64,000 bases of DNA, from positions 1 through 64,000 of the IMG/VR virus record IMGVR_UViG_3300031957_001682. The stretch is one strand, 5' to 3'. The notes beneath the pieces are model-generated. The model made no database searches, was not told the DNA's origin, and was given only the letters and a program-made list of their open reading frames with translations. The stretch's first letter is position 1. Every line of letters begins with the position of its first letter. Below, in pieces: positions 9,916-62,257 of this stretch. The position numbers and the translations under genes are program-made. The stretch is from a virus.

Positions 9916-10533
9916 TCACTGCCCCGTTATTTCGCCCCTTGAGCCAAAAGTTCTTGGTTGTCGTTGGTCGTGAGTGTAATAATCTTTAGGTATTCGCACC
10001 AGTCTTTCGGGTGGGATATTTTCGGTCACCCATGCTTCCGGCCCTTCAATTCCCCATCCTTTATTTCTAAATTCACCCTGTACTTCTTTAATCGGTTTTC
10101 TTACACCGACCCTTGCACGATAAGGAAAATCACTCATTACATCTGTTCTTCTTATCGGGCTAAACCAATTACCGGGTTTATCAAAATCAAACAACTTAAC
10201 ATGTGATATGATACCGGCATCAGCCTTTTCTCTAAAATACTTTTCCCAATCTCTTGAATAAGAAGAAAGAGGTTCGGGTTTTAATCCTTGACGGAACACT
10301 TGTTCTGCGGGCTGTTGCATGGAAACCGGCATAGGGCGAACAGGGGTATTCCTATATTCGGGTATTCCCGAATCTACCATCCTTTGCATTTCATTGTTTT
10401 CAAAAAATTCAGCAGTAGGGTGGCTTCTTTGCATCGTCACCGGCCCATACGAACTGGGAAAGTCGGGGTGGAACTCACCCAATTCTGTTTGGCGTGAAGC
10501 CTTGAGAAAATACCATGCCTTCTCAAACACCAT
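9916..10533 (-). CDS. AW..LK-tagged protein with putative ADP-ribosyltransferase (Tpt1/KptA-like) fold
   Basis: N-terminal MVFEKAWYFLKA; VFRQGLKP, GNWFS and EAWVTENIPPERL resemble ART-fold strands; start could be 10545. Confidence 0.5.
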   Translation of the reverse strand: MVFEKAWYFLKASRQTELGEFHPDFPSSYGPVTMQRSHPTAEFFENNEMQRMVDSGIPEYRNTPVRPMPVSMQQPAEQVFRQGLKPEPLSSYSRDWEKYFREKADAGIISHVKLFDFDKPGNWFSPIRRTDVMSDFPYRARVGVRKPIKEVQGEFRNKGWGIEGPEAWVTENIPPERLVRIPKDYYTHDQRQPRTFGSRGEITGQ

Positions 10534-10547
10534 ATCAAGCCTCATGA

Positions 10548-11195
10548 TTACGAATTGGGAGTGTATGGTGCTCGTTGTGGTCCCATTGTTTGTAATTCAC
10601 GAGGCATAAGTTCGTCGGGTGGTGCCCTAAAAAAATCCCTTCTTGTGTCACCCATTGCTACTTCGGGTTTTTGACGACCATGATATTCTTGACCCTCATG
10701 CCTATATGCGTTCCATTGAGGATGAAATGAAGTAGGCGTGTCAACTAGTTGCCTAAATCTAAACGCTTTATTGCCGGTCGTGGGTGAACGGTGTGGGTCG
10801 TCGGGACTTGTATATGGCGCAGGGAACCCTTCTTCATCCGTTGGATAACCCTGTTTAGTTGCAGTAGGCACATCCCTAATTCTATTTTTATTCTTTAGTG
10901 AATCTTCATACAACTCATGAGGGAAATTTTTTGGGTCTAACTCGTACCCTTCCGTGTCTGTTGGTTCGGGGATTATCTTTCCTTTACCTTCCTCATAAGG
11001 ATTTCTTCTGTTTAGCATACCTACGATTGCAGGGTGCATAGTTTTCAATCTTTCTTGAATCCTCAATTGGTTTGGTGCTACTTGGTAGCCACCTTGATTT
11101 GTAAAAGCCGTGTCCGGGTCTATTGTTTCAGTATAAAGTGAATCTTCGGGCAAAGCCTTCAATAATTTCCATGCTTGTTCAAACGGTTGATTCAT
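10548..11195 (-). CDS. AW..LK-tagged hypothetical protein
   Basis: N-terminal MNQPFEQAWKLLKA; AGGTGG SD; start overlaps upstream stop. Confidence 0.7.
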   Translation of the reverse strand: MNQPFEQAWKLLKALPEDSLYTETIDPDTAFTNQGGYQVAPNQLRIQERLKTMHPAIVGMLNRRNPYEEGKGKIIPEPTDTEGYELDPKNFPHELYEDSLKNKNRIRDVPTATKQGYPTDEEGFPAPYTSPDDPHRSPTTGNKAFRFRQLVDTPTSFHPQWNAYRHEGQEYHGRQKPEVAMGDTRRDFFRAPPDELMPRELQTMGPQRAPYTPNS

Positions 11196-11530
11196 TAACA
11201 ATTCCACCTTTTTAGTGATGCGCCTTTAGGAGTAAGTTTACCCTTCTTGCTGGTTGCTCCTTTCATGCCACTCATTCGAGCGCAAAAAGACTTTCGCCTC
11301 TTAGCCTTTTTCGAGCCGGGTTTAAGTTTGCTCGGTTTAGTCGTTACAGGGGGTTTGAGGTTTGCTCCGCTCTTACGCTTGGCGGCGGCACGGCCTTTAG
11401 CGTTCAGTCCACCTTTTTTGCTGTGCTTGTTTGGATTGTAGCCGTGGAATGGTTTCTCTTTTTTGGCTTTTATTACAGCGAAAGCAAGGTCAGCAGGTGA
11501 GCAACAATTACAAAAATCGTAATCCGTCAT
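11195..11530 (-). CDS. small basic protein of a widespread marine phage family (GGLNAKGR...RKSFCARM...RWNC)
   Basis: Recognisable basic domain preceded by Cys-rich leader and LAFAVIKA. Confidence 0.75.
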   Translation of the reverse strand: MTDYDFCNCCSPADLAFAVIKAKKEKPFHGYNPNKHSKKGGLNAKGRAAAKRKSGANLKPPVTTKPSKLKPGSKKAKRRKSFCARMSGMKGATSKKGKLTPKGASLKRWNC

Positions 11531-14500
11531 GCGCCATCACCTGTGTGGTCCGTTGAATTGTAGTCAACATCTCCTTTATGTCCTTTTGGATGAAGGGATT
11601 GGGAGAAGCGTGGTTGTACGGTGAAGTCCTTACGGACAACGCTCTCATCGCTTTCCACGGATGTGCGACGGCGTGATGCGTCAGCACGATAATGTTCCAA
11701 AGTATTTTCACTGATAATTACACGAGTGACTTCATTGTCAATTTTACTGCTATCAAAGCCGCTATCGCCCGTTCCGATAATCTTTGGTCCTTGACTCATA
11801 GGTACGGTGTCACTTGCGCTAATGTCCATGTAATACGCAGGTGTGTAAGGTGGGTTAGTGTCGGGGTTGGTGGCACGAATGTACGAACCAACCGATGCCT
11901 TACCGTTATCCACATCATACACATAAAGCCCATACTTTCCGCCAGCGGTAGCACCGAAGTAATTGCTACCATACTGCGGGGCTGATGAGTGCAAGTTGAG
12001 GTTGGAACGGAACATTTCAGCGTGTTGTTTGTCCAGTAATCGAACTGGGCGCATCATGTATGTGACCTTCTTATCTGTCACATTTGTACGCACATGTCCG
12101 TTAGTGTCCGTTTGGTATGGGTTGCTGGACTTCCACGCAGATGCCGCAGTGATACCATACTTTTCGGCAAGATAACCTTCAACTTGTTGTAGTTCTGTAG
12201 TGCTTAATGCTCTATTGAATTGAATAATTTCAGCAATCTCACCCACATACGGTGCTGATGATGTGTTTAATGTACCTATGTTTTGTGCATCAGCCGTTGA
12301 TTTGTAAAAATTAGCAGATTGAGTGCCTATTTGAGTACCATCTACCCTTAGCAATTGAGTAGCAGAAGCACCTGCGCCATCACCACCGCTTATTTGCATG
12401 GTGATGATGTCGGGTGTGTTGAGTGTAATAGAACCCGTAGCAGATTTCAACGCTTTCCAAGTTGTATCAGCACCAGCCCAATACTCCCATTGATTATTTG
12501 AACCTGTCATATCGGCATATAGATTGTACCCCGACCTCGTGACAGGAGAGGCACTTCTACTTTCATAACCTAATTGATTAGCATTGTTATCACTGTTCAC
12601 AGCACCTACGAAAAATATTGTAAATTGATTTGTATTCAAATTAGCATCGAAAGCCAATTCAAGTTTATCTCCACCATCAAATCTTAACACAGGCATGTTA
12701 TTAAAATCGGATTCACTTGCGATATATGTTGGCTTTTTACTACTTGTAGATTGAGTAAAGTTTCGATTATTTCCACTCGTATCAGCCCATGTTGATACAC
12801 TTTCACCATCAGTCAAATCGAGGCTGTCGGCTTTAAGCCACAACACCATACCCGATGTTGGTATGCCTCCCCATTCAGTGTCGTCAATAGGTGAAAGATA
12901 GTTGCGGGTTTCAGCGAGGTAAGTACCACCAAGCGGGTTGAAGTTTGAGGTGTGACTCATACGCAACACACCGCCTTGAGGTTGCCCTCCGAAGTCGAGT
13001 GCAGTGAGGTCGTAGTTGCCTATAGTTTGAGAGCCAGTTTGCATACCGCCCTGTAGCACAACACGCTGTCCTACATTGCGGTCTGTGTGTAGGCTGTGCG
13101 CCTCGGTGTTAATGATGATTTGATTGGTGTCCACACCTTGTAGGTTTTCGGTGTCAAGACCGATACGGGGGCTACTGCGGCTTATAGCATCCTTGTGAGG
13201 TGAGTCACCAACGATGTTCTCCATGCGGTCACTCACTACTGCTTCGGGCTTGAGTAGTCCATCTTCTGCAATCTCCAAGCGTGAACTGATACCACGAGGT
13301 ACTTCATCGGCTTGCAGTGTATCGTTTCTTGCACGAATAAATCCATCATTGAGGATAGGCTCGGCGGTGTGATGAGAGAGGACAAGACCCGTGGTGTGTA
13401 TTGGTTCACTCAATGCGGTGAGTACATCTTCGTTGAATTGAGTTGGGTATCGAATACCTCGACCATTACCCATGTCACCCACACGCTGTGCGTTTGATGG
13501 CATGAACACATCAACCAGTGTTGTTGAGTCACTACTATTGGTGTTGTTTAACCGACCACCAAATCTCGGTACGGTCGCTGAAATATCCAATGCCGAGTCT
13601 GCCGCATTGGTAAGTCCCTTCAAGTTGACAAGGTGCTTTCCGTTGTTGTGTATTCGCTGATACGGTGTACGGTTGTTGCGTCGGTCATACTCGTATGCGT
13701 CACCCGCATCCCATGATGGGCGAATACCGAATGAACGGACAGGGAAGCGGCGAACATCTTCACCACGGGTGTTGCCCCACCAATCAACGAGGTAGTATTT
13801 TGCCGCACTCTCAATCGAGTCCAAGCCCTTACCGTTGCCATCGCCCCACCAATCACGCAGTACAGTAGCACTGTTGCGTAGGGTGCGTACAGGGCATCCG
13901 AACGGGCGGGTGAAGCGTACACCGTCGCTGTACCGAACTTGCCATTCCGGTTTGTCAACGCCGAGCATACCGGAGAAGTTAGTTTGTCGTTCCATAATAC
14001 CAGTGTATGTGTTAGGGAATGTTGGGTTTGAACTACCGTTGCCGCCAGCGTAAGTCCATGTTTGAGTTTCTTCTTGTACAAACGGACCATGCTTGTACGC
14101 AACGCTGGCGTTGGTTGCTGTTATTGCTGTTTCACGCAATGCTCGCAAACCGTACATAGACCACTGCGGCTTGTTGTATGGTTGGCGTAGGCCAAAGCGA
14201 TAACCGAATGGGCGTGGCCGTGTTGGGTTGCTGATGCCATCATACGATGACTTGCTGATACCACTACTCGGTGCATAATCACTGTTATCAGCATCATAGT
14301 CACCATCGGTCCAAATTGGCCCGTCAAAGCCGTAATCCCGTGGGTATTCCCAAGACGATGAAACATAGGCGTAGCCATCAAGACGGCTCACCAGTGGTCC
14401 ACCACGGCTACCACTCGGCCAAAAGTGATTGAGCATACTCTTGGTGGCTGTATCACTGCTGTCCGATTGTCCACCTTGCATAAGTCCTGTTCCTATTGTG

Positions 14501-17500
14501 GTGTCAATGGTTTGAGCAGTTTGAGGTGTACCGTCTGCACCTGTGTATATGACCGAGCCTACAGTAATTTGAGGTGGTAAAATATCAAACACTACTATGT
14601 TCGTACCTCCTTCTGCTACAGTACCATTGACTTGATACATGTGACCGTCAACAAAGATGTAAGCCCCATCTCCAATACCTTCACCACCGTTTGTTGTAAT
14701 TGTGTGGTCAGCGGTTTGAGATACTACTTGACGAGTATGTGAACCATCAGCGGCAAGGTCAGCGGTCTTGTAGTAGCGCAGTGAATGATTCCCACTTGCC
14801 ATAGTTGTCAACGGTGTACCCTTGACATTAACACACCCTGTCAATGTTGTACCACCAGCACCACCGCCTGTGTATGTGAAGATTTCTTCTTCACTACCAC
14901 TGTTGACATACACTGTGTTTGTACCACTCGTAGGCCATCCAGCCATGATAGTTCCAGTAGCGGTGACCGTGGTGCTACTCACACTTGCTGATGTAGCGGT
15001 GTAGTATGTTGATTGTGCTTCGGTAGGAGGCATGGCTGTCTTCATTCGCAAAGCAAACGGACCCATGCTGGCGTAATAGGTAGCGTCATGGTAGTGAACA
15101 GTTTCAAAGTGTTCCGGCATACTGTTGAGTGGTTTTTGATTGATGGCTCGGTCAGTCAATGGGTTTAACCATGTTCGACTTGCATCACTGTAAAAGGTGT
15201 GGGGGCGACCAAGATTTGGATGCCATAGGCAAAGGAATGCATCAGCCATGTGTAGGCTGTTTGTGTCACGAGTACCCGTAATCAAATTATCAATAGAGTG
15301 AGCCAAAACACTTGTTTCAGTTTCACTTAAAATCGTATTTGCTGGTCGGAAGTCGTATGCACGAGTCAAGCGAATCTTTGTCCCAACGGTTAAGTTGCTG
15401 GTAAAATCACTATTGGCTACAATGGTAAATTGTAGTGGTTTGTTCATGTTGCTTGAATCATAACCGCTTCTTTCAGTGTAAGAATGAGTTCGTCGTGTAC
15501 CTGTAGCGTCTGTGTACTCAAGCAACATACCGTAGTAGGGTTGCTTAGGGAAACCACGAGCATCATCAACTTTTATGACTGTACTCGATGTAAGGCTTAC
15601 AAAAGTACACACGGGCGTGAGGCTGATGTTCTCAAGAATCTCGGAGTATAGGTCGGGGTAATTACTTGGATAACCAGCCAGTGTAATTTGTGCGGCAACG
15701 GAACCGGCGTTGGCTCTTAGGAACTCGTAGTAATTGTCAAGTCGATGCAAAGACAAGTGGTTAAAGCGACTACCATCGGCATCGTCGGGACCGACCTTGT
15801 GGACAATGGACCACCACGGGATATTGATAGTGTACCCCGGAGATGCATCTGCGAATATTCCAGTAGTGTACGGTAGTGAGCGACGAACGAATGCTGGTGA
15901 TTCTGTGCTTTGTACACCAAGAGGGTTGTACAGCATGAGAGGGGGAATGTTGGTGAAATGGCTACCGTGGTCCGGGTCGTGGTCAATCATCAATTCATTG
16001 ATAAACACTTCACAACCTCGCACATCTGCCATTGTAGCGTTAGCCAAGACAAGTGAATAAGCACCTGTAGTAGCATCGGGTTCACGAATACCTACGACAA
16101 GTGCAACTTGTTGGCTTGTTAATTCATTCACAGACTGATTAGGAATATCATTAGCAGGGCCATTTTCATGATAACCAATAAACTGTGAACTGTGCATATT
16201 TGGCTGAATGATGATTTGATAGGCTCCAACTTCCGCAGGGTCGGGGAAGTGTTCTTTCAGTGTGTAAGTACCTGCGGCTTCAAGCACAATGGTGTGCCCA
16301 CCAGCGGCGTTTACTACACCTGCTTGTCCTTCGGAGGCAAGTACGCCGTAGCCGTCATTACGCAACTTGGTTTCAAACATCAGTGAGAACCCACCACCGT
16401 GAATATCGCTTGGCCCACTCGGTGTAGCGGTTAGCGAACCAAAGACCAACAATGGGTCATAGGTAGGGAATTGGTCGGGTGTGCTTGTAATCAAATCATC
16501 CATATCATAACTTTCTTTAAGTATTTCAAACTCACGAGATTGTAAGGTGGCCGAGCGACAGGCTCTATGTTTGTCGTATAATCCTTGATAGGCAGGGTGC
16601 GCCCAATGTCCGGGTAGCATAGCCATTGTAGCGTTGACGAAGTGATGGCCCATGCGAGGAATAGGCGCAGGGGTGAGTTGTGGTTTACTGTAAATCGAAT
16701 AGCCAGTCATGGCTTCTTCCGCTGTCACCGAGTAGTTGACATAATGCGTATGTGCCATGTCGGGGCTGTTTCCGCTTACTTCGGCGTGGTCACGAATGCG
16801 GCGTGAACCATAGAATCGTGTGCTACCAGCAGGGATATAATACGATGGAACTACTTTCAGTGCTGTAATACTGCTAAGAACGAGTTTGTTGAATGTTTCA
16901 TCACCCACACAACCGGTGAATGTGGACCCGCTGATACCGGTAAAGGATGCTACGCCGCCTTCATCGGTGGTAGGATTGTACAAGCGAAGGAATCTGCGCT
17001 CCCCAACACGCTCTTTGTTTCCAAAGGTCGAATCGTACACAGCGGAGTTTACAGTTGTATTTACTGTTAAAGTAGTGCCACTAAAAGACACGCCTGTGAG
17101 TTCGTGATTAACAACACCATCTGCATGAGAATAGATAACTGGGTGCTTGTGGGTGTTGGTATTACCCATCTTTGTCACATGGAAATACAGTGTTCGGTCG
17201 TGTAGTTCATAGGCTGTTTCAAGAGGTGCGTTTCCGGTGGAACTTTGCCAGCCCGACATTGTGCTTTCGGGGCTATCTATACCTTGCTTGAGGTGTTCCC
17301 AATTGTGGTCACTGTAGGTAGGACCGAGGTTAGGGCTAACTGAATCAGTGTTAAACAAATGCTCAACAGTTGATTTTGTCATCATACCGCCTGTACCCAT
17401 TGATTCTGTTTGATAGGCTTGGAGTCGGTCGAAGCCGGAGCGAATGACTAAGTTGCCGGGTATTGAATCGGGGTCCGGTAGGCGAATCTTGAGGTTAGGG

Positions 17501-20500
17501 CTTATCCCACTACCACTAACGGCTGGTGCTAATCCCTGTGCCCCACGGTCGGAAAGTTGAGTGAAGGTGCGAATGATTGTACCAAACGGTGAACCACCCT
17601 CGATTTTGTGTTCTTGCCCCGTATCGTCAATAACAGTGATACTTTCAAATTGAATTTCTTCATTTGGAATTTCAAGGATATTCCGCAACAAGTCGGGGTG
17701 ACGAGCGGCTAATTGAGGGTGTGACAATTCTTGCGCTTGGATGATTGGGAACATTGCGCTGTTAGTTGACTCAAAGGTGAAGCGGTTATTGCCGTACAGT
17801 TTTTCACCAGTGGTGTATGCGTTTCCACCGGCTACACGAGTGACAAATGGTACAGCACCCAACCCTCGTGCATTTGAAGCAGGGAGGCTAAGGTTGCCAC
17901 CATCCATACGCTTCCACACTACATGTTCAACACTGAAATTCTTAGCAGGTGTGCGTTGTGCTAACTTGTACCCATTGGTGTCACCAAGCCAAAACTCCGG
18001 TCCAGTCACGCCATCCACAGTGGTTTCTGTGTAATCGTAATTGTCAATTTCAGCATCAGCACTCGCAATTGTCAATTCCTTTGTGATGTTTCGTAATACA
18101 TCTGTAGCAACTTCAAGTTGAACTGAACCGGGGCTAATATCGGTGTCAAAGAACAAATCGCCTGTTTCAGCAAAACAAGGTTCAGCGTTAAACAAGTTGG
18201 TATCTTGGTCACCGGTCAGTGCGGTGTGTAAGACATAAGCACCGTTTGGTACATCAGCAGTAGGGGTAGCGGTTCCTGTAGCAATCAACGCTTCAACATT
18301 CGGACCAGCATTAGCAGGTGCAATGTATCGTTCAGCATTGTGGAACCGCTCATCCCATCGTGTAGTACCAGCGAATGTGATAGCAGTAGCGGCGGCTACA
18401 CCAGCACGAGTCTTTGATACGACCGACAACCAATCACCGGTTGACTTGATACCGTCACGGTCAGTCTTGGCTACAAGAGCCAATTCACTTTCGTTGCTAA
18501 TGACAAGCATTGCTCGACTGAATACACCCTGTTGGTGGTGTAGTTTTGGATTGAGTACAAAGTTTGTATCTGTGTCTATTTCACGCATGTGTGCTGGTTT
18601 AGCACTGAAAATATCCTTTGCACTTTCAACATCAGTAAAGTCGTAATTGGTGTACCACGAAGCATTTCCAGCCAAACCAATGTTCCAAGTGTACGGGGTG
18701 GTGAGGGCAACATCGTATGATGTATTCGATGCTTCTTGCCCGTTGACTCTTGGGCTTGATTCGGGACTGTTGTACATTGGGTATGAACTTGGCAAGTGAC
18801 CTAATGTACTCATACATGAGGCTGATGAGCCGTATGGGGTGAATCCCATTTTAGGATGCCAAGCACCTTTTCCGGCGGCGTAAAGATTCGTAGTGAAAGT
18901 GAGTGTACCGTTTGTCACAGAACCTCCTGTTGTTGATGCCGACAACTCAAATCCAGTGCTACTGGTGATGCTACGAACATAAGCACCTGTAGGAATACCA
19001 GTTCCACTCACTAACATACCAACCTTCAATTTTGCAGTTGAATCCATTGCAATAGTAGGGTCGTTGTTGTAGTCACAGGTAGCATCGGTAAATGCGCTTG
19101 TATCGACCTTGAGGGAGTTGAGGTAAGAATAACGCTCTCCCGCCCATCCTACGGCTCCTACAGGGCGTGTACGGTCAATAGCATCCACCAGCCCACCAAA
19201 GTGTGCTTGGGTCATGTGACTACGAGGTGTTTCGTTTTCGTTATTGAAGCGGTGAACACCAGCCTTTGACCATACATACAATTGAGATGGAAGTGGATAT
19301 TCAATAGGTTCGGGTTGACTTGGTGGGTTAGGGTCGATAACATGACCCGGACTTGGGTAAGTCAAAGTAGCACCTTGACATTTATTATGCCAAGTTGTAC
19401 GGTCTTCAAGTAAGGGTAAACCACTGATACGATTTGGTGCAAGGTAAAACCGCACTTTGAAAGTACCACTGTCACTGAATACCTCTCGACTATGATAACA
19501 TCCCCATGTTGGTCCAGCGTGATAAGAGGGGTCACTATGCCCTCCACCTACTGTATGGTCACGACCACCAGTAGGTGTACGCACCCACCCACTCATAGGT
19601 AATTGTTCTAATTCTTCTTGAGTAGCACCACTGATACTTGCTTGAATGTAATTTCTTGAGTTAATGGCAGTTCCCAAAGTCCCAGCATAAAGATTACCAA
19701 TCAGCGTATCTGCATTAACAGTTGGTCCTGTACTTGCGGCATTGGTGTACGCTTCAAATGTCATTTCAACCCAACCATAGCGGTCTTGTCGAGATGCATT
19801 ACCCATAGATGGTAGGAATGTACCACCCATTGCTTTAAGTGCGCCTTTACCGGGGTTTTCGTTGATTGCTTGACCGATGATAGTCGCCAGTTCTTCGCCA
19901 TTTTGACAGCGTGTACCGTCAACTACAATATAATCAGTGTCAAAGTTAAGCGCAGTTTCACTGTTCGCACCTTCAAGGATGGCTTTACCCATTACTCCCG
20001 ATACACGATAAGCAGTAGCGTTGACTTGGTTCCACGCTTCCAAAGCATAGCGGTAGTTGCTGTTTGGATTTGGTGGGTTGAAGGAAACTTGGTTGTCCAA
20101 CCACGAACCGCCGGGGTGGTAGCCGCCGTCCATGTGGAAGGTCATATCCGCACTCATGGCAATACCATAGTAGGCAGTTGCACTGTGTTTGTACGGGTGG
20201 GCCTTCCAATAATCTCCTTTATTATCACTGGTAATTTTACCACTTGTCGGGTTGGTAAATACTTCACCATAGTGGGAACCGTGTTCGGGTCGCTGTTGTA
20301 GGTAGCCCACATTTGGAATACCCTGCGGTGGTGACCAGTTGAGTGTGGTGCGCCAGTGATAGCGGTTTCTTGCGGTTTGGTAAGCCGAATCGGGTGGGCC
20401 GTACAAATTGTCACTGTTGGTAATTTCATTTGGTAGGTACTTGCTGTGAGGTACTTTGCTCCAAGTGTTGCCGGTAGTGACGACATATCCGGGGTGTGGC

Positions 20501-42577: not shown

Positions 42578-42608
42578 ATATTTCACTCTCCATTATTTTT
42601 TTTGTTTT

Positions 42609-44024: not shown

Positions 44025-44045
44025 TACCCTCCGATTCATTGTCAT

Positions 44046-44055
44046 GGTATATAGA
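44046..44055 (-). promoter_or_regulatory. putative TATA box for the protease-capsid operon
   Basis: TCTATATACC on the - strand in the gap upstream of the protease start. Confidence 0.4.
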
Positions 44056-44064
44056 ATGATACTA

Positions 44065-50984: not shown

Positions 50985-50994
50985 TTAAATCACC

Positions 50995-51351: not shown

Positions 51352-51394
51352 GTTCAGCCCTACCTTATCCCATGTTGTTGCTCTTTAAGAGTCT

Positions 51395-53182: not shown

Positions 53183-54477
53183 AGTCCCTCCGCATATCCA
53201 CCTATGGTATCAGCATCCAAGCCCCACTTAGTCAAGAGGTTGTCGGCCTTCTTTTTATCATCTTTCCAATTACTGAAAGTGACAAGTTTTTGTAATTCGT
53301 TTTTTCTCATTTTATCTTTAGAGTCAATAAAAGTCAAAACAGCCTTTGCTTGCAATGATTTCATTTTCAAGTGAGGTAAGATTCCTTTGAGTAATTGTCG
53401 TAAATCATCCTTTGATTGAAAAACCAATCTGTGAAGACTCCGATTACTGTTTTTATGAATTTTTTGATTCAAAACTAAGCGACCACAACCAAGGGCTTTG
53501 TGTAAGTTTTCACAGTGGTCTTTACCCCTTTCTCCTGTAGCAACAAATGTTGCTCTTGGCTCACCTCTTTCGCTAATAAAAATACTTCCATCAGCATCAA
53601 GAAAACCAGCCGCATACGCCCAAATATCCTTGATAATTAAACCATCAGTGCCCATTTTTAAAAATTGTCCACGAGTCGGTGAACGATAAATGTCGAGTTC
53701 TTCGCCGTACATTTTGATAAGCATACCAAGTTTACTGGGAGTAATGGACTTGTTTAAGACACCAACACCACGACGCACAATCTCACGGCTACTTAATTCA
53801 CCGCTTTTTTCTAATTGCGTCGAAGCAAACTCTAAAGTTGTTTTATCGTCTTTTGAAATAGAATCAATTTGATGCAAAGTTTTTCTCCACATCTTTTGAG
53901 CATCTTTACGCATTTGCATTGCGTCAACCCAATTTTCTTGTTCATCAGTACCCCAATCATCAAGTTCGTTTAGCATTGAAAGTACAGAAGTAGCCTTCAA
54001 AAACATTTGACATGCTTGTTGTAAACCGGTACTTCTTGACTCACCAAACTTTCGCAGTGATTTTAGTGAGCGGTCATTTATTCCCATGTATCGTATGGTG
54101 TCTTGCAAACCGTCACTCCAAGTTAAATTATTGATTGTTGCTTCAACTTCCATTGCTTTAATAGTTCTCACATCATCAATAATAGCATCAATCATATCTC
54201 GATTACTTTTGTCGTTTCTACGCATTTTTCGACACATACGAATAATTGAGTCGGCATCTTTACCGTATGTAGCCTCAAGCCACCCATCACCATTTTTTGG
54301 AAAACCGTATGATTTTATGTCTTCTTTGATAAACAAAGACGACTCCTTGACTACAGGGATTTGTTTATTGTAAAAATGTGGATGTTGTGCTAATGTGTTA
54401 AACACGCTTTTGGTGAAATCATCGCCATTAATTTGTGGAGTATCATACTCATCACCGACAATTGCACTACCCCACAT
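53179..54477 (-). CDS. protein with C-terminal single LAGLIDADG endonuclease domain
   Basis: YAAGFLDADGSI ... ILPHLKMKSLQA; ~280-aa unrelated N-terminal part. Confidence 0.8.
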   Translation of the reverse strand: MWGSAIVGDEYDTPQINGDDFTKSVFNTLAQHPHFYNKQIPVVKESSLFIKEDIKSYGFPKNGDGWLEATYGKDADSIIRMCRKMRRNDKSNRDMIDAIIDDVRTIKAMEVEATINNLTWSDGLQDTIRYMGINDRSLKSLRKFGESRSTGLQQACQMFLKATSVLSMLNELDDWGTDEQENWVDAMQMRKDAQKMWRKTLHQIDSISKDDKTTLEFASTQLEKSGELSSREIVRRGVGVLNKSITPSKLGMLIKMYGEELDIYRSPTRGQFLKMGTDGLIIKDIWAYAAGFLDADGSIFISERGEPRATFVATGERGKDHCENLHKALGCGRLVLNQKIHKNSNRSLHRLVFQSKDDLRQLLKGILPHLKMKSLQAKAVLTFIDSKDKMRKNELQKLVTFSNWKDDKKKADNLLTKWGLDADTIGGYAEGL

Positions 54478-54502
54478 ATTGGCTACCTCATTGTCCTATC
54501 AT

Positions 54503-55237
54503 TTAGAGATTCCTATGATGTTGAAACACAGGAATTTTAGTATCTCCATGACCCATTTGACGAAGGGCTTCCATACGATGACCACCTTCTTGCATTCCAG
54601 TGTAATTATTATTGTTAAAACTTAACTCCGGCATACCTATTGGCATCCCTGCTTTTATTCCCTCTATGATTCGAGCGATGTTTTCACGGCTTCCTCCTTG
54701 TGAGGTAAACTGGCGACCATCCCATCTGTATTCAGCATCTCTTCCCCCTACGGGTGGTTCATTGTGTTCTTCTGCACCTTGTCCTACAATGTCAAAATAA
54801 TCATTCGGTGTCATTTGAGTAATTTTATCATTTTTACCATAAGCATAAGGTTGACCACCAATCACGGGTTCGGAGAAATCCATATTGTAAGCCATTCGTA
54901 CACCCGGTATATCAGTATCAACAATAGGTGCTTTGACTAAGACGCTCTTGACAATTGTAGGTTTACCGCCTACGCCTTGTTTTTTTGCACGCTTGCGTTT
55001 GGTAGCGGCTTGCTTTTGACCCTCGGACATTGAGCCGCTGGTCTTAGGTGTTTTACTTGATACTTTGACGGAAGGACGACACTTTGGATAACCCTTGCTT
55101 GATTTACTTGCTTTAGAACGCCCACATGGTGGGTGCTTGCCGTCTTTGTCTTTGCGTGACACATCAACCCACTTTTCTTTGAACCAACGGTTCAAATCCT
55201 TAACGATGAGAACATCGTAGCAGGTACATCGAGTCAT
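54503..55237 (-). CDS. fusion of basic phage domain (LNRWFKEKWVDV..CGRS..YPKCRP) and ParB/Srx-like domain
   Basis: Junction TIVKS-VLVKA; C-terminal IGMPEL..EGGHRMEALRQMG..IPV is ParB-like. Confidence 0.65.
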   Translation of the reverse strand: MTRCTCYDVLIVKDLNRWFKEKWVDVSRKDKDGKHPPCGRSKASKSSKGYPKCRPSVKVSSKTPKTSGSMSEGQKQAATKRKRAKKQGVGGKPTIVKSVLVKAPIVDTDIPGVRMAYNMDFSEPVIGGQPYAYGKNDKITQMTPNDYFDIVGQGAEEHNEPPVGGRDAEYRWDGRQFTSQGGSRENIARIIEGIKAGMPIGMPELSFNNNNYTGMQEGGHRMEALRQMGHGDTKIPVFQHHRNL

Positions 55238-55402
55238 TCAAAGTACACCGACCATTTTCTTAATGTCTTTTTGCTTGTCAATAAGAGCGTAACAGGGACA
55301 CTTCGGAGAAGAAGCAGAACACTGCATAACACCTTTAATCATGCAAACACATGGTGTTTTTTCGGTTCCACCACAGCAACAAGATTTTCTTTTAAGTTTC
55401 AT
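55238..55402 (-). CDS. 54-aa Cys-rich microprotein (not in ORF track)
   Basis: Manual translation MKLKRKSCCCGGTEKTPCVCMIKGVMQCSASSPKCPCYALIDKQKDIKKMVGVL; overlaps upstream stop by 4 nt and abuts the next start. Confidence 0.7.
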   Translation of the reverse strand: MKLKRKSCCCGGTEKTPCVCMIKGVMQCSASSPKCPCYALIDKQKDIKKMVGVL

Positions 55403-55590
55403 TTTTTCTTCCCCTTCTTCTTACCTTTGAACTTACCTTTGCAATATTGAACAGCCCATCCATTTGCATAGGCTGATGGGTAAACATCGAACTTGCGCTT
55501 TGCCGCCGCTTTACCAGCGGGACACAGTTTCTTTTCTAATGCATCCCACGCTGTTGTCATTCCGACACAGTGACCGCAATAGCAACTCAT
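55399..55590 (-). CDS. small basic protein (AKRKFDVYPSAYANGW family) with Cys leader and AW tag
   Basis: MSCYCGHCVGMTTAWDALEK then the PSAYANGW domain common in marine viruses. Confidence 0.75.
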   Translation of the reverse strand: MSCYCGHCVGMTTAWDALEKKLCPAGKAAAKRKFDVYPSAYANGWAVQYCKGKFKGKKKGKKK

Positions 55591-55591
55591 A

Positions 55592-56068
55592 TCAATCACT
55601 TCTTTGCGTAAAAGGATTTGGTGGGTCACTAAAATCTAAGACTCTTTCTTTAGCATGTTGCGGAGGGGGTGCTTGTGGCATCGTACTTCGAGTCATCTGT
55701 CTTTGTTGAGCGAAAGATGCTGGATTGATTGTACCGCCGGGCGTTGAAGGTGTGGTAGGTACATCATCACCAAGTTCCGGTGATTTAGTTTCATTCTTTT
55801 CTGCATTAGGGTCATTTACATTTCCCATTTGCATACGGGCTTGTTGATGTTCTTCTCTCCCTGCTCGCATTCGTGCAATAGGAGTTGAAAATGGTTTACC
55901 TGTTTTATCAGTTTCTTTCATCTTCAAAAATTTCCAAGCGTCACCCATTGGGATTGCTTTCTTTTTGCTGTCCGGGTCTGCTGTTTTTTCCGGCGACTTA
56001 GGCGGCTTACCACCAAGTGCAATTACAACAACCATGCCTTTCTTTTTCTTTTTATCGTCTTCTTTCAT
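55592..56068 (-). CDS. hypothetical protein with internal AW..LK tag
   Basis: IPMGDAWKFLK; overlaps the terminase stop by 4 nt. Confidence 0.7.
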   Translation of the reverse strand: MKEDDKKKKKGMVVVIALGGKPPKSPEKTADPDSKKKAIPMGDAWKFLKMKETDKTGKPFSTPIARMRAGREEHQQARMQMGNVNDPNAEKNETKSPELGDDVPTTPSTPGGTINPASFAQQRQMTRSTMPQAPPPQHAKERVLDFSDPPNPFTQRSD

Positions 56069-57555
56069 GGTACTAACCATCCGTCGCCAGTTCCTTTATT
56101 TCGATGTGGCATACCACCGATGTACTCATCGAGTCCCGGTAGTATGTCATCGAGTAGTTGCACTGAACCTTTGAACTCTTTTGTTCCCCAGTTCGCTAAA
56201 GCAAGTGCCATTGCCAAGTCATCGTGAGTACCGACCGATTCAAGTCGCCCATTCTTTTGCATACCGAATCGGTTCAATTCTTCTTCTAATTTGTGAGTGA
56301 ATGTACGACTTCGCTCATCACCATACGGCAATTGAATGTGTCCTTGTTCAAAAGCCATAAGCAAAGACATGAACATACTTTCTTTGCGCTGGCGTGTTGT
56401 CATAAAAGTACGAATAGGAATATCGTTTCTCATGTCTTGAAGTTCAGCGGCAAACATTCGCTGGAAGTTGTTTCCTTCAAGTTCAATCAAATCCGGCTGG
56501 AAGCGATTGTTAAGAGTGAGAATGTGTTTTTTCTGTGCTAATCCACCAAGTCCTTTTTCGTGAACGATACCGACAATTTGCTTTATGTTTTCACCGGGTG
56601 GTGTACGAAGCACAAGCATGGCTGTGTAGTCAGCGTTCTTATCCGAAGCAATCGCTGTGTCCCATCCAATGAAGTGCTGTCCGAACACACCAGCGGGATT
56701 ACCTTCTTCGTCGTATTCGGTATCAGCCCTGTCAAGTAATACCAGTTCATTGTTGCGAGCCTCATTTAGAATTGTAGCAGGGAACATACTCGCAACATCG
56801 TGAATAGGTTCACACAAATACTCACGGCTGAATTGGATAGCGGGCATGGACATACGCCGTTGCTCAAGTGCCTCAAGATTCCACCGTTCCGGCCAAAGCG
56901 CATTACCTTCCCCATCAATAGCAGGGTATGTTTCGACACGGAATGTTTCTTTTTGCTCAAGTTCTGCGTACAAATCGTTGTACGAAAACGGTGTACCGAC
57001 CATCATCAAACGAGAAGAGTGGTGCAGAACAGGCAAAAGAACACCATAGAACCAGTCAGCGGCACGCTGTAGTTCTCCACCTGTAGTACCCCAAAGAATA
57101 TCGTCGCAAACGACCACATCGGGGTGGAAACCACGGGTAGCACCACCAACGGACTTAGCCATCAATCGGCTACCGTTAGTGAACTCAAAGTACGACTTAG
57201 CCCACGGTCGGCCACCTTCGGGCTTGAGGTGTCGAAGAATATCGGATGATTCAATGTTGTTGCGAATAAATCGCATGTGTTCAAGCGTCTGTTCAAGAGA
57301 GTGAGAAAAAATCATGATGTGTGTACCGGGTTTGAAAGCGGCAATCCAAAGAGCATAGGCCATGAACAAAGTGGATTTACCGTGGTCACGACTCGCTTTA
57401 ACACAGTAGTATCGGTGTTCGTTCAATCCTGTTTCCCAAGACTCGTGGTGATGACTGTAATGAAAGCCCAAAATTTCTGTAAAGAAATACTTGAATGACT
57501 TGGCCGACATTTTGCTATCCATCTCGTGGATAAACGCATTCATGTCCTCTCCCAT
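56065..57555 (-). CDS. terL: terminase large subunit
   Basis: Walker A ASRDHGKS, RGFHPDVVVCDD (Walker B), VGTP, LWPE, FSREYLC, nuclease GWD..D and HDDLAMA; GGTGA SD before ATG 57555. Confidence 0.93.
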   Translation of the reverse strand: MGEDMNAFIHEMDSKMSAKSFKYFFTEILGFHYSHHHESWETGLNEHRYYCVKASRDHGKSTLFMAYALWIAAFKPGTHIMIFSHSLEQTLEHMRFIRNNIESSDILRHLKPEGGRPWAKSYFEFTNGSRLMAKSVGGATRGFHPDVVVCDDILWGTTGGELQRAADWFYGVLLPVLHHSSRLMMVGTPFSYNDLYAELEQKETFRVETYPAIDGEGNALWPERWNLEALEQRRMSMPAIQFSREYLCEPIHDVASMFPATILNEARNNELVLLDRADTEYDEEGNPAGVFGQHFIGWDTAIASDKNADYTAMLVLRTPPGENIKQIVGIVHEKGLGGLAQKKHILTLNNRFQPDLIELEGNNFQRMFAAELQDMRNDIPIRTFMTTRQRKESMFMSLLMAFEQGHIQLPYGDERSRTFTHKLEEELNRFGMQKNGRLESVGTHDDLAMALALANWGTKEFKGSVQLLDDILPGLDEYIGGMPHRNKGTGDGWLVP

Positions 57556-57559
57556 TGTA

Positions 57560-58390
57560 TCACCGTGTCTTAATATACATGAAAGCGGCGAGTTCACCAA
57601 TTTCATTTGGTGTCATTTTGTAAAGATTATCGGGTCCGAGTAAGTCGAATAACATTCCATTAAACGCTTTGGTGGGCATCAATACAGGTCTTGGTTGTCC
57701 GGTCACGGGGTCTATGGATGCTTGATACTGCGCCATCCCCGATGGATTCATTTGTTGTTGAACGGTACTTGCCATATTTGACTGATTCAATACATTGGGA
57801 GGTAGTGGTGGATTCATTTGTTGTTCAACGGTACTTGCCATATCTTGCTGATTCAATACATTGGGAGGTAATGGCACAGCAGGTGCGGCAGTTGCGGCAG
57901 GTTGGGGTAATGCAGGTATGGGTGCGGCAGGTGCAGATGCTACAGGTGCAGGTACGGATGGTGAAGTTGATACATTTACAAGACCAGTGGATGAAGGTAA
58001 TGGTACTCCACCTTCATTTGCCGCCATACCCGGAGCGGGTAATGGGATAGAATTGGGTTTAACCCCGACATGAGAATTTCCTTCAATTTGTCTTGCTGTG
58101 AATGCCCCTGTTGGGTCAAGTCCTTGATAGGTGTACCCTGCTCCAAGTGGAGCGGCTATGTTGCCACCTTGCATTGCATCAGCGGTGCTTAAAGCAGTAG
58201 CCCCTAAAGCCGCACCTTTACCAGCAAGTCCAGCAAGTCCAACCAATCGACCTGTTCTGCTAACTTTGGAACCGGGTTTTGTACCACGACCACGAACCGC
58301 ATTGAACAAATCCATTGCCGAAGGACTACCTTGACCCACTGTTTGAAATTGAGTCACATCTGCTTTTACCAAAACTTTGTTGCTCACCAT
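57560..58390 (-). CDS. low-complexity Pro/Ala/Gln-rich protein with Gly-rich hydrophobic segment
   Basis: KVLVKAD start; LVGLAGLAGKGAALGATAL; internal 22-aa duplication. Confidence 0.7.
   Translation of the reverse strand: MVSNKVLVKADVTQFQTVGQGSPSAMDLFNAVRGRGTKPGSKVSRTGRLVGLAGLAGKGAALGATALSTADAMQGGNIAAPLGAGYTYQGLDPTGAFTARQIEGNSHVGVKPNSIPLPAPGMAANEGGVPLPSSTGLVNVSTSPSVPAPVASAPAAPIPALPQPAATAAPAVPLPPNVLNQQDMASTVEQQMNPPLPPNVLNQSNMASTVQQQMNPSGMAQYQASIDPVTGQPRPVLMPTKAFNGMLFDLLGPDNLYKMTPNEIGELAAFMYIKTR
57743..57874 (-). repeat. 66-nt tandem duplication (PLPPNVLNQ..MASTV.QQMNP)
   Basis: Two near-identical 66-nt units. Confidence 0.85.
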
Positions 58391-58391
58391 A

Positions 58392-60593
58392 TCACCCCAT
58401 GTTTGTTTTTATGACTTTGATAATCTTAGCATCAACATTGTAGGACTTAGCGATGTTGTGCCAATCTCCCATTGTTTGATTGATTGTCACGACCTCACTT
58501 GCGGTTAGCCCGACATGTTTCGCCAGTGCGTGTGGATTGTTAAGATTACTGTTAATTTTAATCCCCTCGAATCCGGCTTCTTCTTGTTGCATTCGCTCTA
58601 ATGCTTTCATCACTCGGTCCATTACCGGTAGGTGTGCATCTTCGCTTCTTAGGTACTGGTCAAGTAATTGCTGTCTTGGGTCGGAAAGTGATTGTTGCGC
58701 CCTTCTTTCAATCGGTGTTAAAAATTCATCCGGTGCTGGACTTGCTCGACCTCCACCACCAGCAACCATCATTTCTCTAAATTGCTGTGGTGTTTGATTT
58801 GCAATCTGTGGTCTAACTTGCTGGAACCGTGGGTCAAGAGGCGTAGCCGGTGGGCCTTGTGGTCTTACCGCTACAGGAGGAAGAGGTGCCGCACCGGAGG
58901 GAGGTGGTGAAGAAACCGGAACCTGCGAAAGAGCGGAAGCAGGGGATTCCGGTGCGACTGTATCACCACTTGGGCGAATTGGCATGGCTGTACTTTCTGC
59001 AAAGTCTTCCATAGGGTGTAGGTATGCATCCATGTGAGGGTCGAGTGTGGCATCAACTCCTTCTTCGGGATAATCTAAAAATTGCATATTTTTTGCTGGT
59101 TCTGTTTTTATGTCACCAATGGGCATTTTTACTGGCAAACCCTGTGATTCTGCTTGGTGGTCGGCTAATGCTTCGATAATACCACGAAAACGCTCGACTT
59201 GACCCATAAGCCGCTCATCGTATCGTACACCAAATGCGTTTAACTGCTCACTGTCAATTGAATGATTACTCAAATTACTTCGCTCGGAGTCATCATCACT
59301 TAGACCGGACCTGTGAGCGAGTGCCATAAGACGGGCGGCAGTGGTGTCTTTTCCTTTGCTACCACCCCTACCGGGTTTGAAATGACGACTTTGTTCATCA
59401 TAGGACAAACCTTCTTCTCCTTCACCATAGATACCCATGAGGCTATTGAAATGCTTGTTAAAATCACCTTGACCCGGCCTACCAAACAAATACATCATTG
59501 CTGGTACATTTGCCATATCTTGAATTAAACTTCTTCGTAGTTCACTATCTTGAAGAATGACACGAAGTGGGCGTTGAATCATTTCGGGACTCGCTAAAGT
59601 GCCCACATTGATTGTAGCGGGTACATCGGGAATTGCATCTATGTTGCCCAAAGCGTTTGTAATGGCCCTTTCAGCCATTTGATATAATCCATTTTTGTGT
59701 TCCCAACTACCTTTTTTTCCGGCTTTTTGTCCACTTGCTTTTGTGTTAGGATAAAAGAAAATGTCCGGTAGGTGGTGAGTAGTTGATTCAGTGTGTACCG
59801 CAGTTTGTTCACTGAAATAATCATCGGGTGCCCTTGACATGTGTTGTGTGCTTATTTGATTCGGATGTTCTTGATATGAAGCATCAACTCGACCTTTAGG
59901 TGCTGTTTCACGAGCGTAAATGTAAGGTCTTTTTACAAAAGTTAAATCCGATGATACTTCAAATGGAACTCCATGTTCTCTTTCAAGAATTTGACCAAGT
60001 TCGTGATTAAAAGGAATAGAATATGATTCAATAAAACGACCCATTGGGGTATAGTTTTTGTCACCGGGGGTGAAATTTTTGTTAGTGTAAGTGGTAATCA
60101 AAGAACCATTTTTGGTTTTTGTTGGGCGTTCGGAGTGGCCTTCTGTGCTGTCACCCGGAGGTAGCATTCCAGCCCTAATTTTTCTCCACGCCATGTTGTC
60201 AAAAGGTGGTAATGCGTGCATTCCATTATTCTTATCATCATCACCTTTGTGACTTGTATGGTTTTGATTAAACAATTGAATTGCTTTGTTAATCAAATCG
60301 ACAGGATGTGCTTTGATACCATGTTTTTCTAAAAACCACCCTAAGCGTGTAGCCGCCGCATCAATACCGTGTTGATAACTTCCCATTGGTGTGTTGTAGT
60401 GTAGTTCACCGTGGTCACCCGGAGCAAACTCACCTTCAAGAATTTCTCCTTGAGCATGTGCAAAGGCGGGTACATCTTCTTCTGTAGGTGGTCGAAACGC
60501 TGTTGCCGGTGGGTTGCGAATCATTGCCGCACCCTGTGGGGTAAAATGCTTCATTCCCCATGCTTTAATCAATGGAAAACGAACAGGTATCAT
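58392..60593 (-). CDS. 733-aa hypothetical (putative internal virion) protein
   Basis: Long coupled ORF, FPLIKA start, Pro-rich linker, short helical C-terminal domain. Confidence 0.7.
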   Translation of the reverse strand: MIPVRFPLIKAWGMKHFTPQGAAMIRNPPATAFRPPTEEDVPAFAHAQGEILEGEFAPGDHGELHYNTPMGSYQHGIDAAATRLGWFLEKHGIKAHPVDLINKAIQLFNQNHTSHKGDDDKNNGMHALPPFDNMAWRKIRAGMLPPGDSTEGHSERPTKTKNGSLITTYTNKNFTPGDKNYTPMGRFIESYSIPFNHELGQILEREHGVPFEVSSDLTFVKRPYIYARETAPKGRVDASYQEHPNQISTQHMSRAPDDYFSEQTAVHTESTTHHLPDIFFYPNTKASGQKAGKKGSWEHKNGLYQMAERAITNALGNIDAIPDVPATINVGTLASPEMIQRPLRVILQDSELRRSLIQDMANVPAMMYLFGRPGQGDFNKHFNSLMGIYGEGEEGLSYDEQSRHFKPGRGGSKGKDTTAARLMALAHRSGLSDDDSERSNLSNHSIDSEQLNAFGVRYDERLMGQVERFRGIIEALADHQAESQGLPVKMPIGDIKTEPAKNMQFLDYPEEGVDATLDPHMDAYLHPMEDFAESTAMPIRPSGDTVAPESPASALSQVPVSSPPPSGAAPLPPVAVRPQGPPATPLDPRFQQVRPQIANQTPQQFREMMVAGGGGRASPAPDEFLTPIERRAQQSLSDPRQQLLDQYLRSEDAHLPVMDRVMKALERMQQEEAGFEGIKINSNLNNPHALAKHVGLTASEVVTINQTMGDWHNIAKSYNVDAKIIKVIKTNMG

Positions 60594-62257
60594 CCCATGT
60601 GCCCCCGCTTTGAAGTAAGATAACCAGCGGGGTCAAGTCCTAAACGACTTGAATTGGTTTCAAGATTTTGAGTAGGACCGTCATTCTTCTCATCTTCATC
60701 TTCATTCTGTTGCACACCGGCTGGATGCGCTGGCACTGCCCCTTCTTCAAAAGCCGACGCTGTACCCGCTTTTTTCATATTGGCTTTTTTTCTTTGAAGT
60801 TCAATTAACTGCCTCATCAATTGAAGCATTTCAACACGATTAGCGTGACGATTACCTTTGAGTAAATCACTTTCAGTACGCTCTTCACTCATCATCATTG
60901 TTGACGATGGTGCTGGCATACTCGGAACGCTACTCATCGGTGGAGCCATCTGTGGCATTTGTGGCATGGCTGGCACACGAGGCATACGAGGCACACGAGG
61001 CATACGAGGGCGGCGCATTCTTCGGAGAGAAGGCTGTCGCATTTGTCCCGATTGACCCGGTAATAGACCAGTTAAACGCCCAGCACCAGTTGGTCCAGCA
61101 GTAAACGACCTTGCGCTGTGACGAGCGTGTGGAGAATATGTGTTGCGAACACCACCAAGAATTTTTTGTGATTCTTGCTGGCCCATGTATTGACGGTATT
61201 TTTGTGGGTCTTTACTCATGGGTTGCTTAGTCGCAATACCACGGTGACTCATTTCAACAGACAAGTGAGGCTTCATCAAACCTGTTTTCTTTCCACCCTT
61301 GATACCACGCATTCTTGCTTTAAATCGCTTCATGGTTGCACCAACACCACCGCTTTGCCCACCCGGTGGTTTCTTGAATTGTCCAGTTGAAGGGCGGAAC
61401 TCTCTTCGTTTTTCACGGCGACGACGAGCCTCTATTGTACCCATTGTGTCACGCTTAAGTAGTGTACTCCAAGCATCAGCCATTGGTTCACTCATGGTAA
61501 AACTTGTTTCATCATTAAACGGTACATCAGTAAAATCACGATATTTACCTTCTATATCATCAAACGGAGGTTGTGCATCATCAACTTGAAAATTATGTAA
61601 ATCATATAATTTCTCAAAAAAATCTTCACGAGATGTAGCACTTGCTAAGTGGTTTATGTCGGGTTGTTGGAAATCATCTGCAAGACCCTCATACAAATGG
61701 GGGTTATCTATCTGTTCTTGAATCCAATTATACCATTCGGGGTGAACATCATTACGATTTGGCATTTTGTAATCGTGTTTGTATTGATTTTCACCGGGAT
61801 GAACCGTAGGTTCTTCTTTCAACAATGTACTCCAAGCACCATCCATCGGCTCGCCTGTTCTTACGGCTGAATTACCCGTACCCATCGCTGAACCTGTACC
61901 TGTCTTTGCACCTGTGGCTAAATCGAGTAAATGTCCACGACTACCAGCCGGTCCACCTTGAAGCCCTATCTCACGCTCATCATCACGCTTGTTACCGTCA
62001 TCAAGACCGGGTTCTGTTTCCAATCCCGCCCCTTGACCTAACCCTTGAGATGGTTTAATTTTGATGTGTTTGATTTCTTTGGCCTTTTTCTTAGCCTCTT
62101 CTTCTTTGAGTTTTTTTGCTTCTGCCCGCTTTTCATTATCTTCGGGTGAAGTAGGGTTGTATTTACCCTCATCTTCATTAGCAGAAGAATACATGTGAGA
62201 TGATTCACTACGGGGTGCATACATGCGTGTGTCCGAACCTCGACCCATAACCATCAT
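60590..62257 (-). CDS. 555-aa mosaic, largely disordered protein with two AW..LK tags
   Basis: EPMDGAWSTLLK and EPMADAWSTLLK bracket an acidic block; highly basic block and PR[M/V] repeats follow. Confidence 0.75.
   Translation of the reverse strand: MMVMGRGSDTRMYAPRSESSHMYSSANEDEGKYNPTSPEDNEKRAEAKKLKEEEAKKKAKEIKHIKIKPSQGLGQGAGLETEPGLDDGNKRDDEREIGLQGGPAGSRGHLLDLATGAKTGTGSAMGTGNSAVRTGEPMDGAWSTLLKEEPTVHPGENQYKHDYKMPNRNDVHPEWYNWIQEQIDNPHLYEGLADDFQQPDINHLASATSREDFFEKLYDLHNFQVDDAQPPFDDIEGKYRDFTDVPFNDETSFTMSEPMADAWSTLLKRDTMGTIEARRRREKRREFRPSTGQFKKPPGGQSGGVGATMKRFKARMRGIKGGKKTGLMKPHLSVEMSHRGIATKQPMSKDPQKYRQYMGQQESQKILGGVRNTYSPHARHSARSFTAGPTGAGRLTGLLPGQSGQMRQPSLRRMRRPRMPRVPRMPRVPAMPQMPQMAPPMSSVPSMPAPSSTMMMSEERTESDLLKGNRHANRVEMLQLMRQLIELQRKKANMKKAGTASAFEEGAVPAHPAGVQQNEDEDEKNDGPTQNLETNSSRLGLDPAGYLTSKRGHMG

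Follow-up and report, generated by a model that had tools for sequence, protein, structure and literature searches.

In bacteriophage T4, diverse internal proteins share only a single element, the capsid targeting sequence (CTS) (PMC3012670). A second group of phage products, the polyvalent proteins, are multi-module proteins encoded beside portal and terminase genes, which combine ADP-ribosyltransferase (ART), zincin-like peptidase, HNH and other conflict domains (PMC5512222). These proteins, including effectors fused to MuF, are thought to be packaged and delivered together with the DNA, and some of them are proteolytically processed (PMC5512222). These two systems are the closest analogues of a short peptide tag, with the core AW..LK, that recurs in viral DNA recorded as IMGVR_UViG_3300031957_001682 in IMG/VR. 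The stretch analysed here, hereafter the window, comprises positions 1 to 64,000 of that record. An initial annotation of the window had proposed that this peptide is a portable signal by which otherwise unrelated proteins are loaded into the prohead and then cut behind its Lys. The recurrence of the tag is confirmed here and lies far beyond chance; it is confined to the late genes and to a single virus lineage.

The window covers the first 64 kb of one viral contig of 107,632 bp, which encodes 113 open reading frames (ORFs) totalling 35,130 amino acids (aa) and whose minus strand, from ~7 to 74.5 kb, forms the late (virion) gene block. The whole genome contains 15 clear copies of the tag, on about a dozen otherwise unrelated late proteins. 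The nine canonical copies and one variant that the initial annotation had listed were all recovered where it had placed them, in minus-strand ORFs. VFEKAWYFLK (10501-10530) occupies residues 6-15 of ORF 9916-10545, or residue 2 onwards if translation starts at Met5, and heads a putative ART-like domain, whilst PFEQAWKLLK (11157-11186) occupies residues 8-17 of the adjacent ORF 10548-11207, the likely start of which is also Met5 and whose sequence downstream of the tag has no family match in Pfam or PHROGs. PMRDAWDILK (38832-38861; residues 170-179 of ORF 38532-39368) closes a conserved N-domain that is followed by a variable Zn-ribbon tail, and AMNEAWKVLK (39525-39554) stands at the start of a 70-aa Zn-ribbon microgene (39378-39590). 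GMTTAWDALEK (55531-55563) belongs to ORF 55399-55629, PMGDAWKFLK (55922-55951) to ORF 55592-56080 (residues 44-53), the gene immediately upstream of the large terminase, and the pair PMDGAWSTLLK (61817-61849; residues 137-147) and PMADAWSTLLK (61454-61486; residues 258-268) brackets an acidic module of ORF 60590-62257. Two members are weak. YIIAWESLEK (49885-49914; residues 30-39 of a 1978-aa head-module protein, 44065-50001) scores 15.6 bits against a hidden Markov model (HMM) built from the copies and is kept in one relative (L011). The variant PADLAFAVIK (11468-11497, ORF 11195-11530) is read as a decayed copy, since the orthologue in another relative, L146, carries the canonical tag AFDEAWDLLEK. 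Further copies lie in the part of the genome beyond the window: a 911-aa protein (66935-69670) contains four, a protein encoded on the plus strand that has a tail-lysin-like domain (69643-71241) contains one, and 72347-73291 and 73401-74429 each have one at the N-terminus.

Comparison with shuffled proteins and with the replication genes had been named in the initial annotation as a check on the motif. Genome-wide, the strict form AW..L[LE]?K matched 11 times, against a mean of 0.19 and a maximum of 3 in 300 per-protein shuffles, and a looser form extended by the P[MF] prefix matched 15 times, against 0.19; the tag patterns gave zero matches in the non-gene frames of the genome. The HMM scored the tags at 15 bits or more and everything else at 5.5 bits or less, a separation that is circular for the seed copies themselves. 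All 15 copies fall within 9.9-74.4 kb, for which the chance is ~0.001 if copies were spread in proportion to coding length, and neither the patterns nor the HMM, scanned over the whole genome, found a copy in the plus-strand replication block. The earlier impression that this block lacks the tag was therefore correct, and so was the claim that the tagged proteins share nothing else: with the tags masked, an all-against-all BLASTP of 14 tagged proteins returned one 19-residue stretch only, common to 9916-10545 and to the second module of 66935-69670.

The affiliation of the virus can be judged from its gene content. A thermosome-type chaperonin (Cpn60_TCP1, E 5e-125) is encoded on the plus strand at 5185-6687, as are an ERCC4 nuclease and an SNF2 helicase elsewhere on that strand, and by its major capsid protein (MCP) the closest cultured relatives are haloarchaeal siphoviruses such as HVTV-1 (37% identity). 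These features match the published description of the uncultured marine magroviruses of archaea, above all those of group A, whose genomes encode a thermosome, an SNF2 helicase and a head module like that of haloviruses (PMC5434244). When IMG/VR was scanned for PMxxAWxxLK with a degenerate DNA pattern, at least 79 loci were obtained, and of the 79 analysed ~29 were chance matches in unrelated phages, which were excluded, and ~50 were relatives of this virus. Among the matches listed, to which the counts of distinct copies given below also refer, these relatives carry 121 tags, many of them outside the scanned pattern and up to six in one 1205-aa ORF. At least 141 distinct copies are present in related marine viral contigs, and 85 of 141 contexts are less than 60% identical over 30 residues. 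Three whole relatives (G001, G002 and G005; MCP 76-77% identical) have 15, 10 and 12 tags, respectively; with one exception these are all on the late strand, and most are found shortly upstream of the terminase. Each of five near-complete relatives has between one and six matches to the strict DNA pattern, always on a single strand per genome, and a reversed control pattern gave 0 matches in the same five. Scanned for the motif, as the initial annotation had advocated, the relatives have the tags clustered in late genes, with variable modules downstream.

In a halovirus relative and in cellular genomes the tag is not seen. The late half of HVTV-1 contains no tag (best HMM score 3.5 bits), and a search for EPMDxAWxLLK in 185,579 prokaryote genomes (596 Gb) gave two matches, neither of them a cellular tag: one is a magrovirus fragment in a 'Parvibaculum' metagenome-assembled genome (MAG) and the other a chance match. 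The former (NZQM01000026.1, MAG Parvibaculum sp.), a 16-kb contig with the tag, also has genes homologous (28-73% identity) to those at 58392-65962 in the numbering of the window; being a magrovirus fragment, it was probably binned with an alphaproteobacterial MAG in error. The motif is not mentioned in the magrovirus papers PMC5434244 and PMC11706807, nor was a description of it found in the literature searched; the initial annotation, too, had known of none for archaeal tailed viruses.

The consensus of the tag, ([ST][GS]E)-P-[MF]-x-x-A-[WMF]-x-[LIV]-L-K, spans 10-12 residues and ends in Lys. Ala and Lys are found in 141/141 copies, Leu in 132, Trp in 116 (otherwise M, F or Y) and Pro in 113, with [DENR] at the third position and [LIVF] at the eighth, whilst the residue after the Lys is free (A 17%, E 15%, M 11%, R 10%). 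Internal copies are preceded by [ST][GS]E, which is helix-capping, and N-terminal copies begin with M-[NTK]-P-M. The hydrophobic residues are spaced i, i+4, i+7, making the peptide amphipathic, and the AF2 model of 9916-10545 (pLDDT 78) has a helix at residues 2-14 and a linker at 14-19 (pLDDT <50), followed by the domain; the tag is accordingly predicted to be an amphipathic helix with a flexible linker behind it. An N-terminal position, as in T4, is seen for 46 of the 141 copies; of the remainder, 84 are internal and 11 C-terminal. The broader statement that copies stand at an N-terminus or at a boundary within the protein was upheld, with the correction that in relatives the tag can also form the extreme C-terminal end.

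A repeated element at the joints of modules could in principle be maintained as DNA, its coding sequence serving as a homology arm for the in-frame shuffling of cassettes and the peptide itself being functionless. Copies inside one gene do share DNA, as in the two EPM..AWSTLLK copies, and module swaps do fall exactly at the tags. Between genes, however, identical tag residues use the same codon in only 78 of 202 cases, barely above the ~34% expected from codon usage, and the peptide is intact in relatives whose neighbouring proteins are only ~30% identical. Selection at the level of the protein is further indicated by the amphipathic pattern, by the invariance of A, L and K and by a W that hardly varies. 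As the codons differ between copies, selection acts on the peptide and not on a DNA repeat, and these codon data make a DNA recombination joint highly improbable.

The tag marks exact boundaries between modules. Known families start directly behind it: phrog_27331 at residues 33-76 of ORF 55399-55629, DUF6321 at residues 36-109 of ORF 11195-11530 and phrog_6437 at residues 839-906 of 66935-69670. In the 38532-39368 family, homology among relatives stops exactly at the Lys of the tag, K179, behind which each lineage has a differing Zn-ribbon-like tail; in six relatives the homologue ends 1-6 residues past the Lys and the next conserved gene follows within ~35 nt. Ten relatives lack the neighbouring microgene 39378-39590, and in these the genes on either side lie directly against each other; the microgene is probably a tagged cassette that was inserted recently. 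Different relatives likewise have different tagged genes at the site between 8496-9914 and a giant late ORF of 6359 aa (11527-30606, minus strand). In ORF 54503-55237, DUF5872 (residues 14-86) is joined to a module marked by APIVDTDIPG through VKSVLVK|AP, and VKSVLVK (54932-54952, minus strand) looks like a decayed tag, the same module being headed by canonical tags in three relatives (L138, L089 and L141). A PDB sequence search with this C-terminal module found nothing, after which a ParB-like reading of GGHRMEALRQ, made by eye, was dropped. With one peptide on unrelated proteins, exact module boundaries and downstream sequences that are interchangeable between related viruses, the proposal of a portable tag with plug-in cargo is well supported.

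The modules behind the Lys are varied and include an ART-like fold, HExxH and HNH-like modules, Zn ribbons and small basic proteins. The family of 9916-10545 keeps the tag in 50 of 53 homologues and has a near-invariant N-terminal leader, made up of the tag and a 20-residue stretch, RQTELGEFHPDFPSSYGP, followed by divergent bodies, some of which have a YHGT motif. This stretch, also present in relatives P0044-P0053, may be either the first conserved element of the ART-like domain or a second functional peptide. Foldseek found nothing significant in the PDB for the model of 9916-10545, whilst in an exhaustive structural alignment (VIA-align) nearly all of the top 50 chains were ADP-ribosyltransferases, at Z ≤4.9, among them KptA/Tpt1, DarT, Rhs toxins, cholix, exotoxin A, the pertussis and diphtheria toxins and PARPs; one homologue gave a sub-threshold PARP match of 22.9 bits. 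The signal for an ART-like fold in this model is consistent but weak. The 911-aa protein 66935-69670 consists of four tag-separated modules and has no Pfam match above threshold. Its second module has the same leader as 9916-10545 together with a YHGT motif, from which we infer an ART-like identity; its third contains HEYTH (an HExxH motif, spotted by eye) and its fourth is phrog_6437. For most tagged proteins Pfam and PHROGs gave no match, and the ESM Atlas no usable match. As a repertoire, this cargo resembles T4 Alt and the polyvalent proteins (PMC5512222).

How the tag might operate is suggested by its form. A short helix on a linker, placed at any position, often multivalent, invariant across the lineage and carrying interchangeable modules among virion genes, favours a docking handle. 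Through such a handle, exchangeable modules would be held to a single viral partner within the head during assembly, and the docked modules would then be packaged and delivered with the DNA, as T4 does by means of its CTS. By analogy, loading into the prohead is the most likely role, the T4 CTS being the sole common element of diverse internal proteins (PMC3012670). That the tag loads accessory or effector-like modules in this way has, in our estimate, somewhat less than an even chance of being correct. An HK97-type prohead protease could further cut at the invariant Lys, thereby freeing N-terminally tagged cargo and splitting multi-tag polyproteins. Cutting behind the Lys is doubtful, as is the more ambitious proposal, which we offer only tentatively, of a position-independent helical code that both loads any module via one receptor and defines the protease-cut joints of cassette polyproteins. 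Under such a code, effector modules could be plugged in, duplicated and swapped at the tag with no loss of loading. It is more likely that docking is the main role and that cleavage is optional.

The tag resembles the CTS of T4 proteins IPI-III and Alt in several respects. In both cases a short peptide, portable in principle, is the sole common element of diverse and fast-changing tailed-virus proteins and a prohead protease is present; the T4 cargo includes the ADP-ribosyltransferase Alt, to which the putative ART-like domain of 9916-10545 would be comparable. There are also differences. The T4 CTS is exclusively N-terminal and is cut at L/I-x-E by gp21, which belongs to a different protease family, whereas the magrovirus tag occurs inside proteins as well, up to six times in one of them, and at C-termini, has Lys as its last residue and is predicted to be helical. 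The two peptides have no sequence similarity, and the protease here is a Peptidase_S78 and not of the gp21 type. Moreover, the magrovirus is an archaeal virus with an S78 protease-scaffold fusion, and loading and cutting, proven for T4, are here proposed functions.

This fusion is a candidate for the cutter of the tag, for its receptor or for both, and the MCP is a further candidate receptor. The presence of an HK97-type protease, assumed in the initial annotation, was borne out by a Pfam Peptidase_S78 match at 42609-44123 (minus strand; likely start Met27 at 44045), where the protease is fused to a scaffold-like C-terminal half. The adjacent MCP (41477-42586, minus strand), of the SU10/HK97 type, contains [LI]LK|AD at residues 35-39 (42470-42484), which is kept in relatives down to 69% identity and aligns with MSK|AD of HVTV-1 (K102/A103). 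The HK97 MCP is cut at K103/S104, i.e. after Lys, by the type member of the protease family (PMC10275583). The [LI]LK|AD sequence is a candidate maturation site near the equivalent of this position, although it would remove only ~34-37 residues. The N-terminus of the protease has a conserved [LI][LI]K[SG]; the sequence MNRRVMLSLK at the same end was considered as a tag and rejected, as relatives read MLAIQRP there. Taken together, an HK97-family protease, these two tag-like sequences and the tag at every polyprotein joint make cleavage plausible. The ORF of the 1978-aa head-module protein, read in a different frame, shares 59 nt with the protease ORF (44065-44123). In two relatives (L061 and L062) the homologue of this large protein and the protease-scaffold form a single open frame of ~1800 aa, from which the 1978-aa protein is probably a protease-linked head component.

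A second shared peptide, separate from the tag, ends both the protease-scaffold (42633-42665) and a 111-aa protein encoded at 50649-50984 (50676-50708). It reads P[ST]T.[ED][LMF].[NA]M[SGD]W[DE][DE][VI]H.[LM]A, with the core NMSW[DE][ED][VI]H.[LM]A, and is kept in all relatives seen. It is probably the end through which two scaffold-like proteins bind the coat, so that the 111-aa protein may act as an adaptor or as a second scaffold. A complex prediction with the MCP, the protease-scaffold and a 30-residue tag piece of 10548-11207 scored 0.01 against a mark of 0.32; run with three chains and their own alignments, outside the calibration of the tool, and without controls, it is evidence neither way. 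The AF2 model of the MCP itself reached a pLDDT of 30, from a 26-row alignment in which all relatives are at least 72% identical. With the NMSW peptide as the more obvious coat binder, the receptor of the tag may lie in the scaffold or protease, in the portal or elsewhere.

A number of observations weigh against loading into the prohead followed by a cut, beginning with the cut. The tripeptide is common, ~50 being expected per proteome by a back-of-envelope estimate from residue frequencies. Protease substrates usually bind in extended form, whereas the tag is predicted to be helical and leaves P1' unconstrained. C-terminal tags with only 1-3 residues past the Lys, as seen in many relatives in the 38532-39368 family, gain nothing from cutting. 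It is the conservation of these C-terminal tags, together with the helical form, that leads us to prefer docking over cleavage. Conversely, one tag per polyprotein would suffice for loading alone, yet every joint keeps a full tag.

This last point also bears on the possibility that the peptide is a processing joint only, a recognition element for the S78 or another protease with no role in addressing the capsid. Up to six full tags per ORF mark the joints, the Lys is invariant with the break in homology exactly behind it, the MCP and protease sequences just described resemble the end of the tag, and processing of polyvalent phage proteins is known (PMC5512222). A cleavage site, however, would need far less than ten conserved residues with helical periodicity, and tags are conserved at C-termini, where cutting is pointless. 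Were the S78 protease the one responsible, entry into the capsid would itself be implied, as S78 proteases are normally active only inside proheads. The embedded HExxH module, considered as a possible dedicated protease of the tag, is unlikely to be one: tblastn (E ≤1e-3) does not find it in three whole relatives, each of which still carries 10-15 tags. A role confined to processing is, overall, quite unlikely.

The capsid as the destination of the tag, central to the docking reading, also meets objections. Some tagged genes (9.9-11.5 kb) adjoin tail-fibre genes and not head genes, and all nine large tag-bearing genomes examined (this one and eight others) encode a thermosome homologue. In addition, the NMSW peptide is a more obvious coat-binding element than the tag, and the coat site is therefore perhaps already taken. 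The tag could instead dock on a hub outside the capsid interior, such as the viral thermosome, the portal or terminase, part of the tail or a protein of the host that the virus takes over. Short linear motifs that bind hubs are typically multivalent and independent of position, the gene directly upstream of the large terminase is often tagged (at its C-end in G001 and L149), and some tagged genes come after the giant tail-fibre gene. The co-occurrence with the thermosome is, however, confounded, the nine genomes representing one virus lineage, and small Zn ribbons and disordered basic proteins would hardly need a chaperonin. Mimicry of a host motif is opposed by the absence of the strict tag from the 185,579 prokaryote genomes save for the mis-binned viral contig, and replication and early proteins, which a motif for host takeover might be expected to include, are untagged. 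Such a hub is an unlikely destination.

The portal and terminase are encoded within the same late block, on the minus strand at 51395-53182 and 56065-57606 (large subunit), respectively. The C-terminal part of the portal (51395-51800) is a ~75-residue low-complexity tail rich in Pro, Gly and Met (GMPPPMPGGGMPPPGMPMG), and the tagged 555-aa protein contains RMP/QMP repeats that resemble it (60590-61100). A 432-aa protein with an HNH endonuclease domain at residues 287-392 (53179-54477) lies between the portal and terminase genes, as in HVTV-1.

The remaining known systems each resemble the magrovirus tag in part. Like the polyvalent proteins, the tagged proteins are encoded among late packaging genes; their tags form a cluster on the late strand, upstream of the large-terminase gene. 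No common joint peptide is described in PMC5512222, a text search of which for 'linker' found nothing, whereas the magrovirus helix marks every joint and also heads single-module genes; compared with the domain models of polyvalent proteins, the tagged proteins gave no significant Pfam match. Many internal head proteins of the giant phages phiKZ and SPN3US are processed by a prohead protease at a short shared motif (PMC10052503, PMC7411985). Unlike the magrovirus tag, these motifs are three-residue sites (S/A/G-x-E) and not a 10-residue helix, and the propeptides removed are not one shared sequence. The C-terminal coat-binding helices of the P22, 80alpha and herpesvirus scaffolds are alike in that a short terminal helix docks a protein to the capsid protein during assembly; here, in contrast, the separate candidate for that function is the NMSW peptide, which is dissimilar to the AW..LK tag. 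Encapsulin cargo-loading peptides dock cargo on the inner face of an HK97-fold shell with no cleavage and are transferable to foreign cargo; they are usually C-terminal, extended and rich in Gly, Ser and Leu. They share with the tag the principle of a short peptide on unrelated cargo, differing in that they have no similarity to it in sequence and that binding to the shell is, in the magrovirus, only a candidate function.

Magroviruses rank with the most abundant surface-ocean viruses (an MCP search returned 1592 protein clusters), and most of their genes have no known function. By marking a dozen or more accessory proteins per genome, the tag lists proteins that are likely to be delivered or co-assembled across thousands of metagenomic contigs. 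It also allows the exchange of modules to be tracked and candidates, such as the ART-like, HExxH and HNH-like modules, to be chosen for a role in the takeover of Marine Group II archaea. Should the tag dock elsewhere than in the head, it would point to a new central player in infection. If its role is indeed loading, no such code for cargo would have been described before in an archaeal tailed virus, and the tag could serve as a small handle by which foreign proteins are packaged into HK97-type shells. If the dual-role code were also true, magroviruses would possess a modular virion-cargo system that has no described counterpart in archaeal viruses and is more general than the N-terminal CTS of T4.

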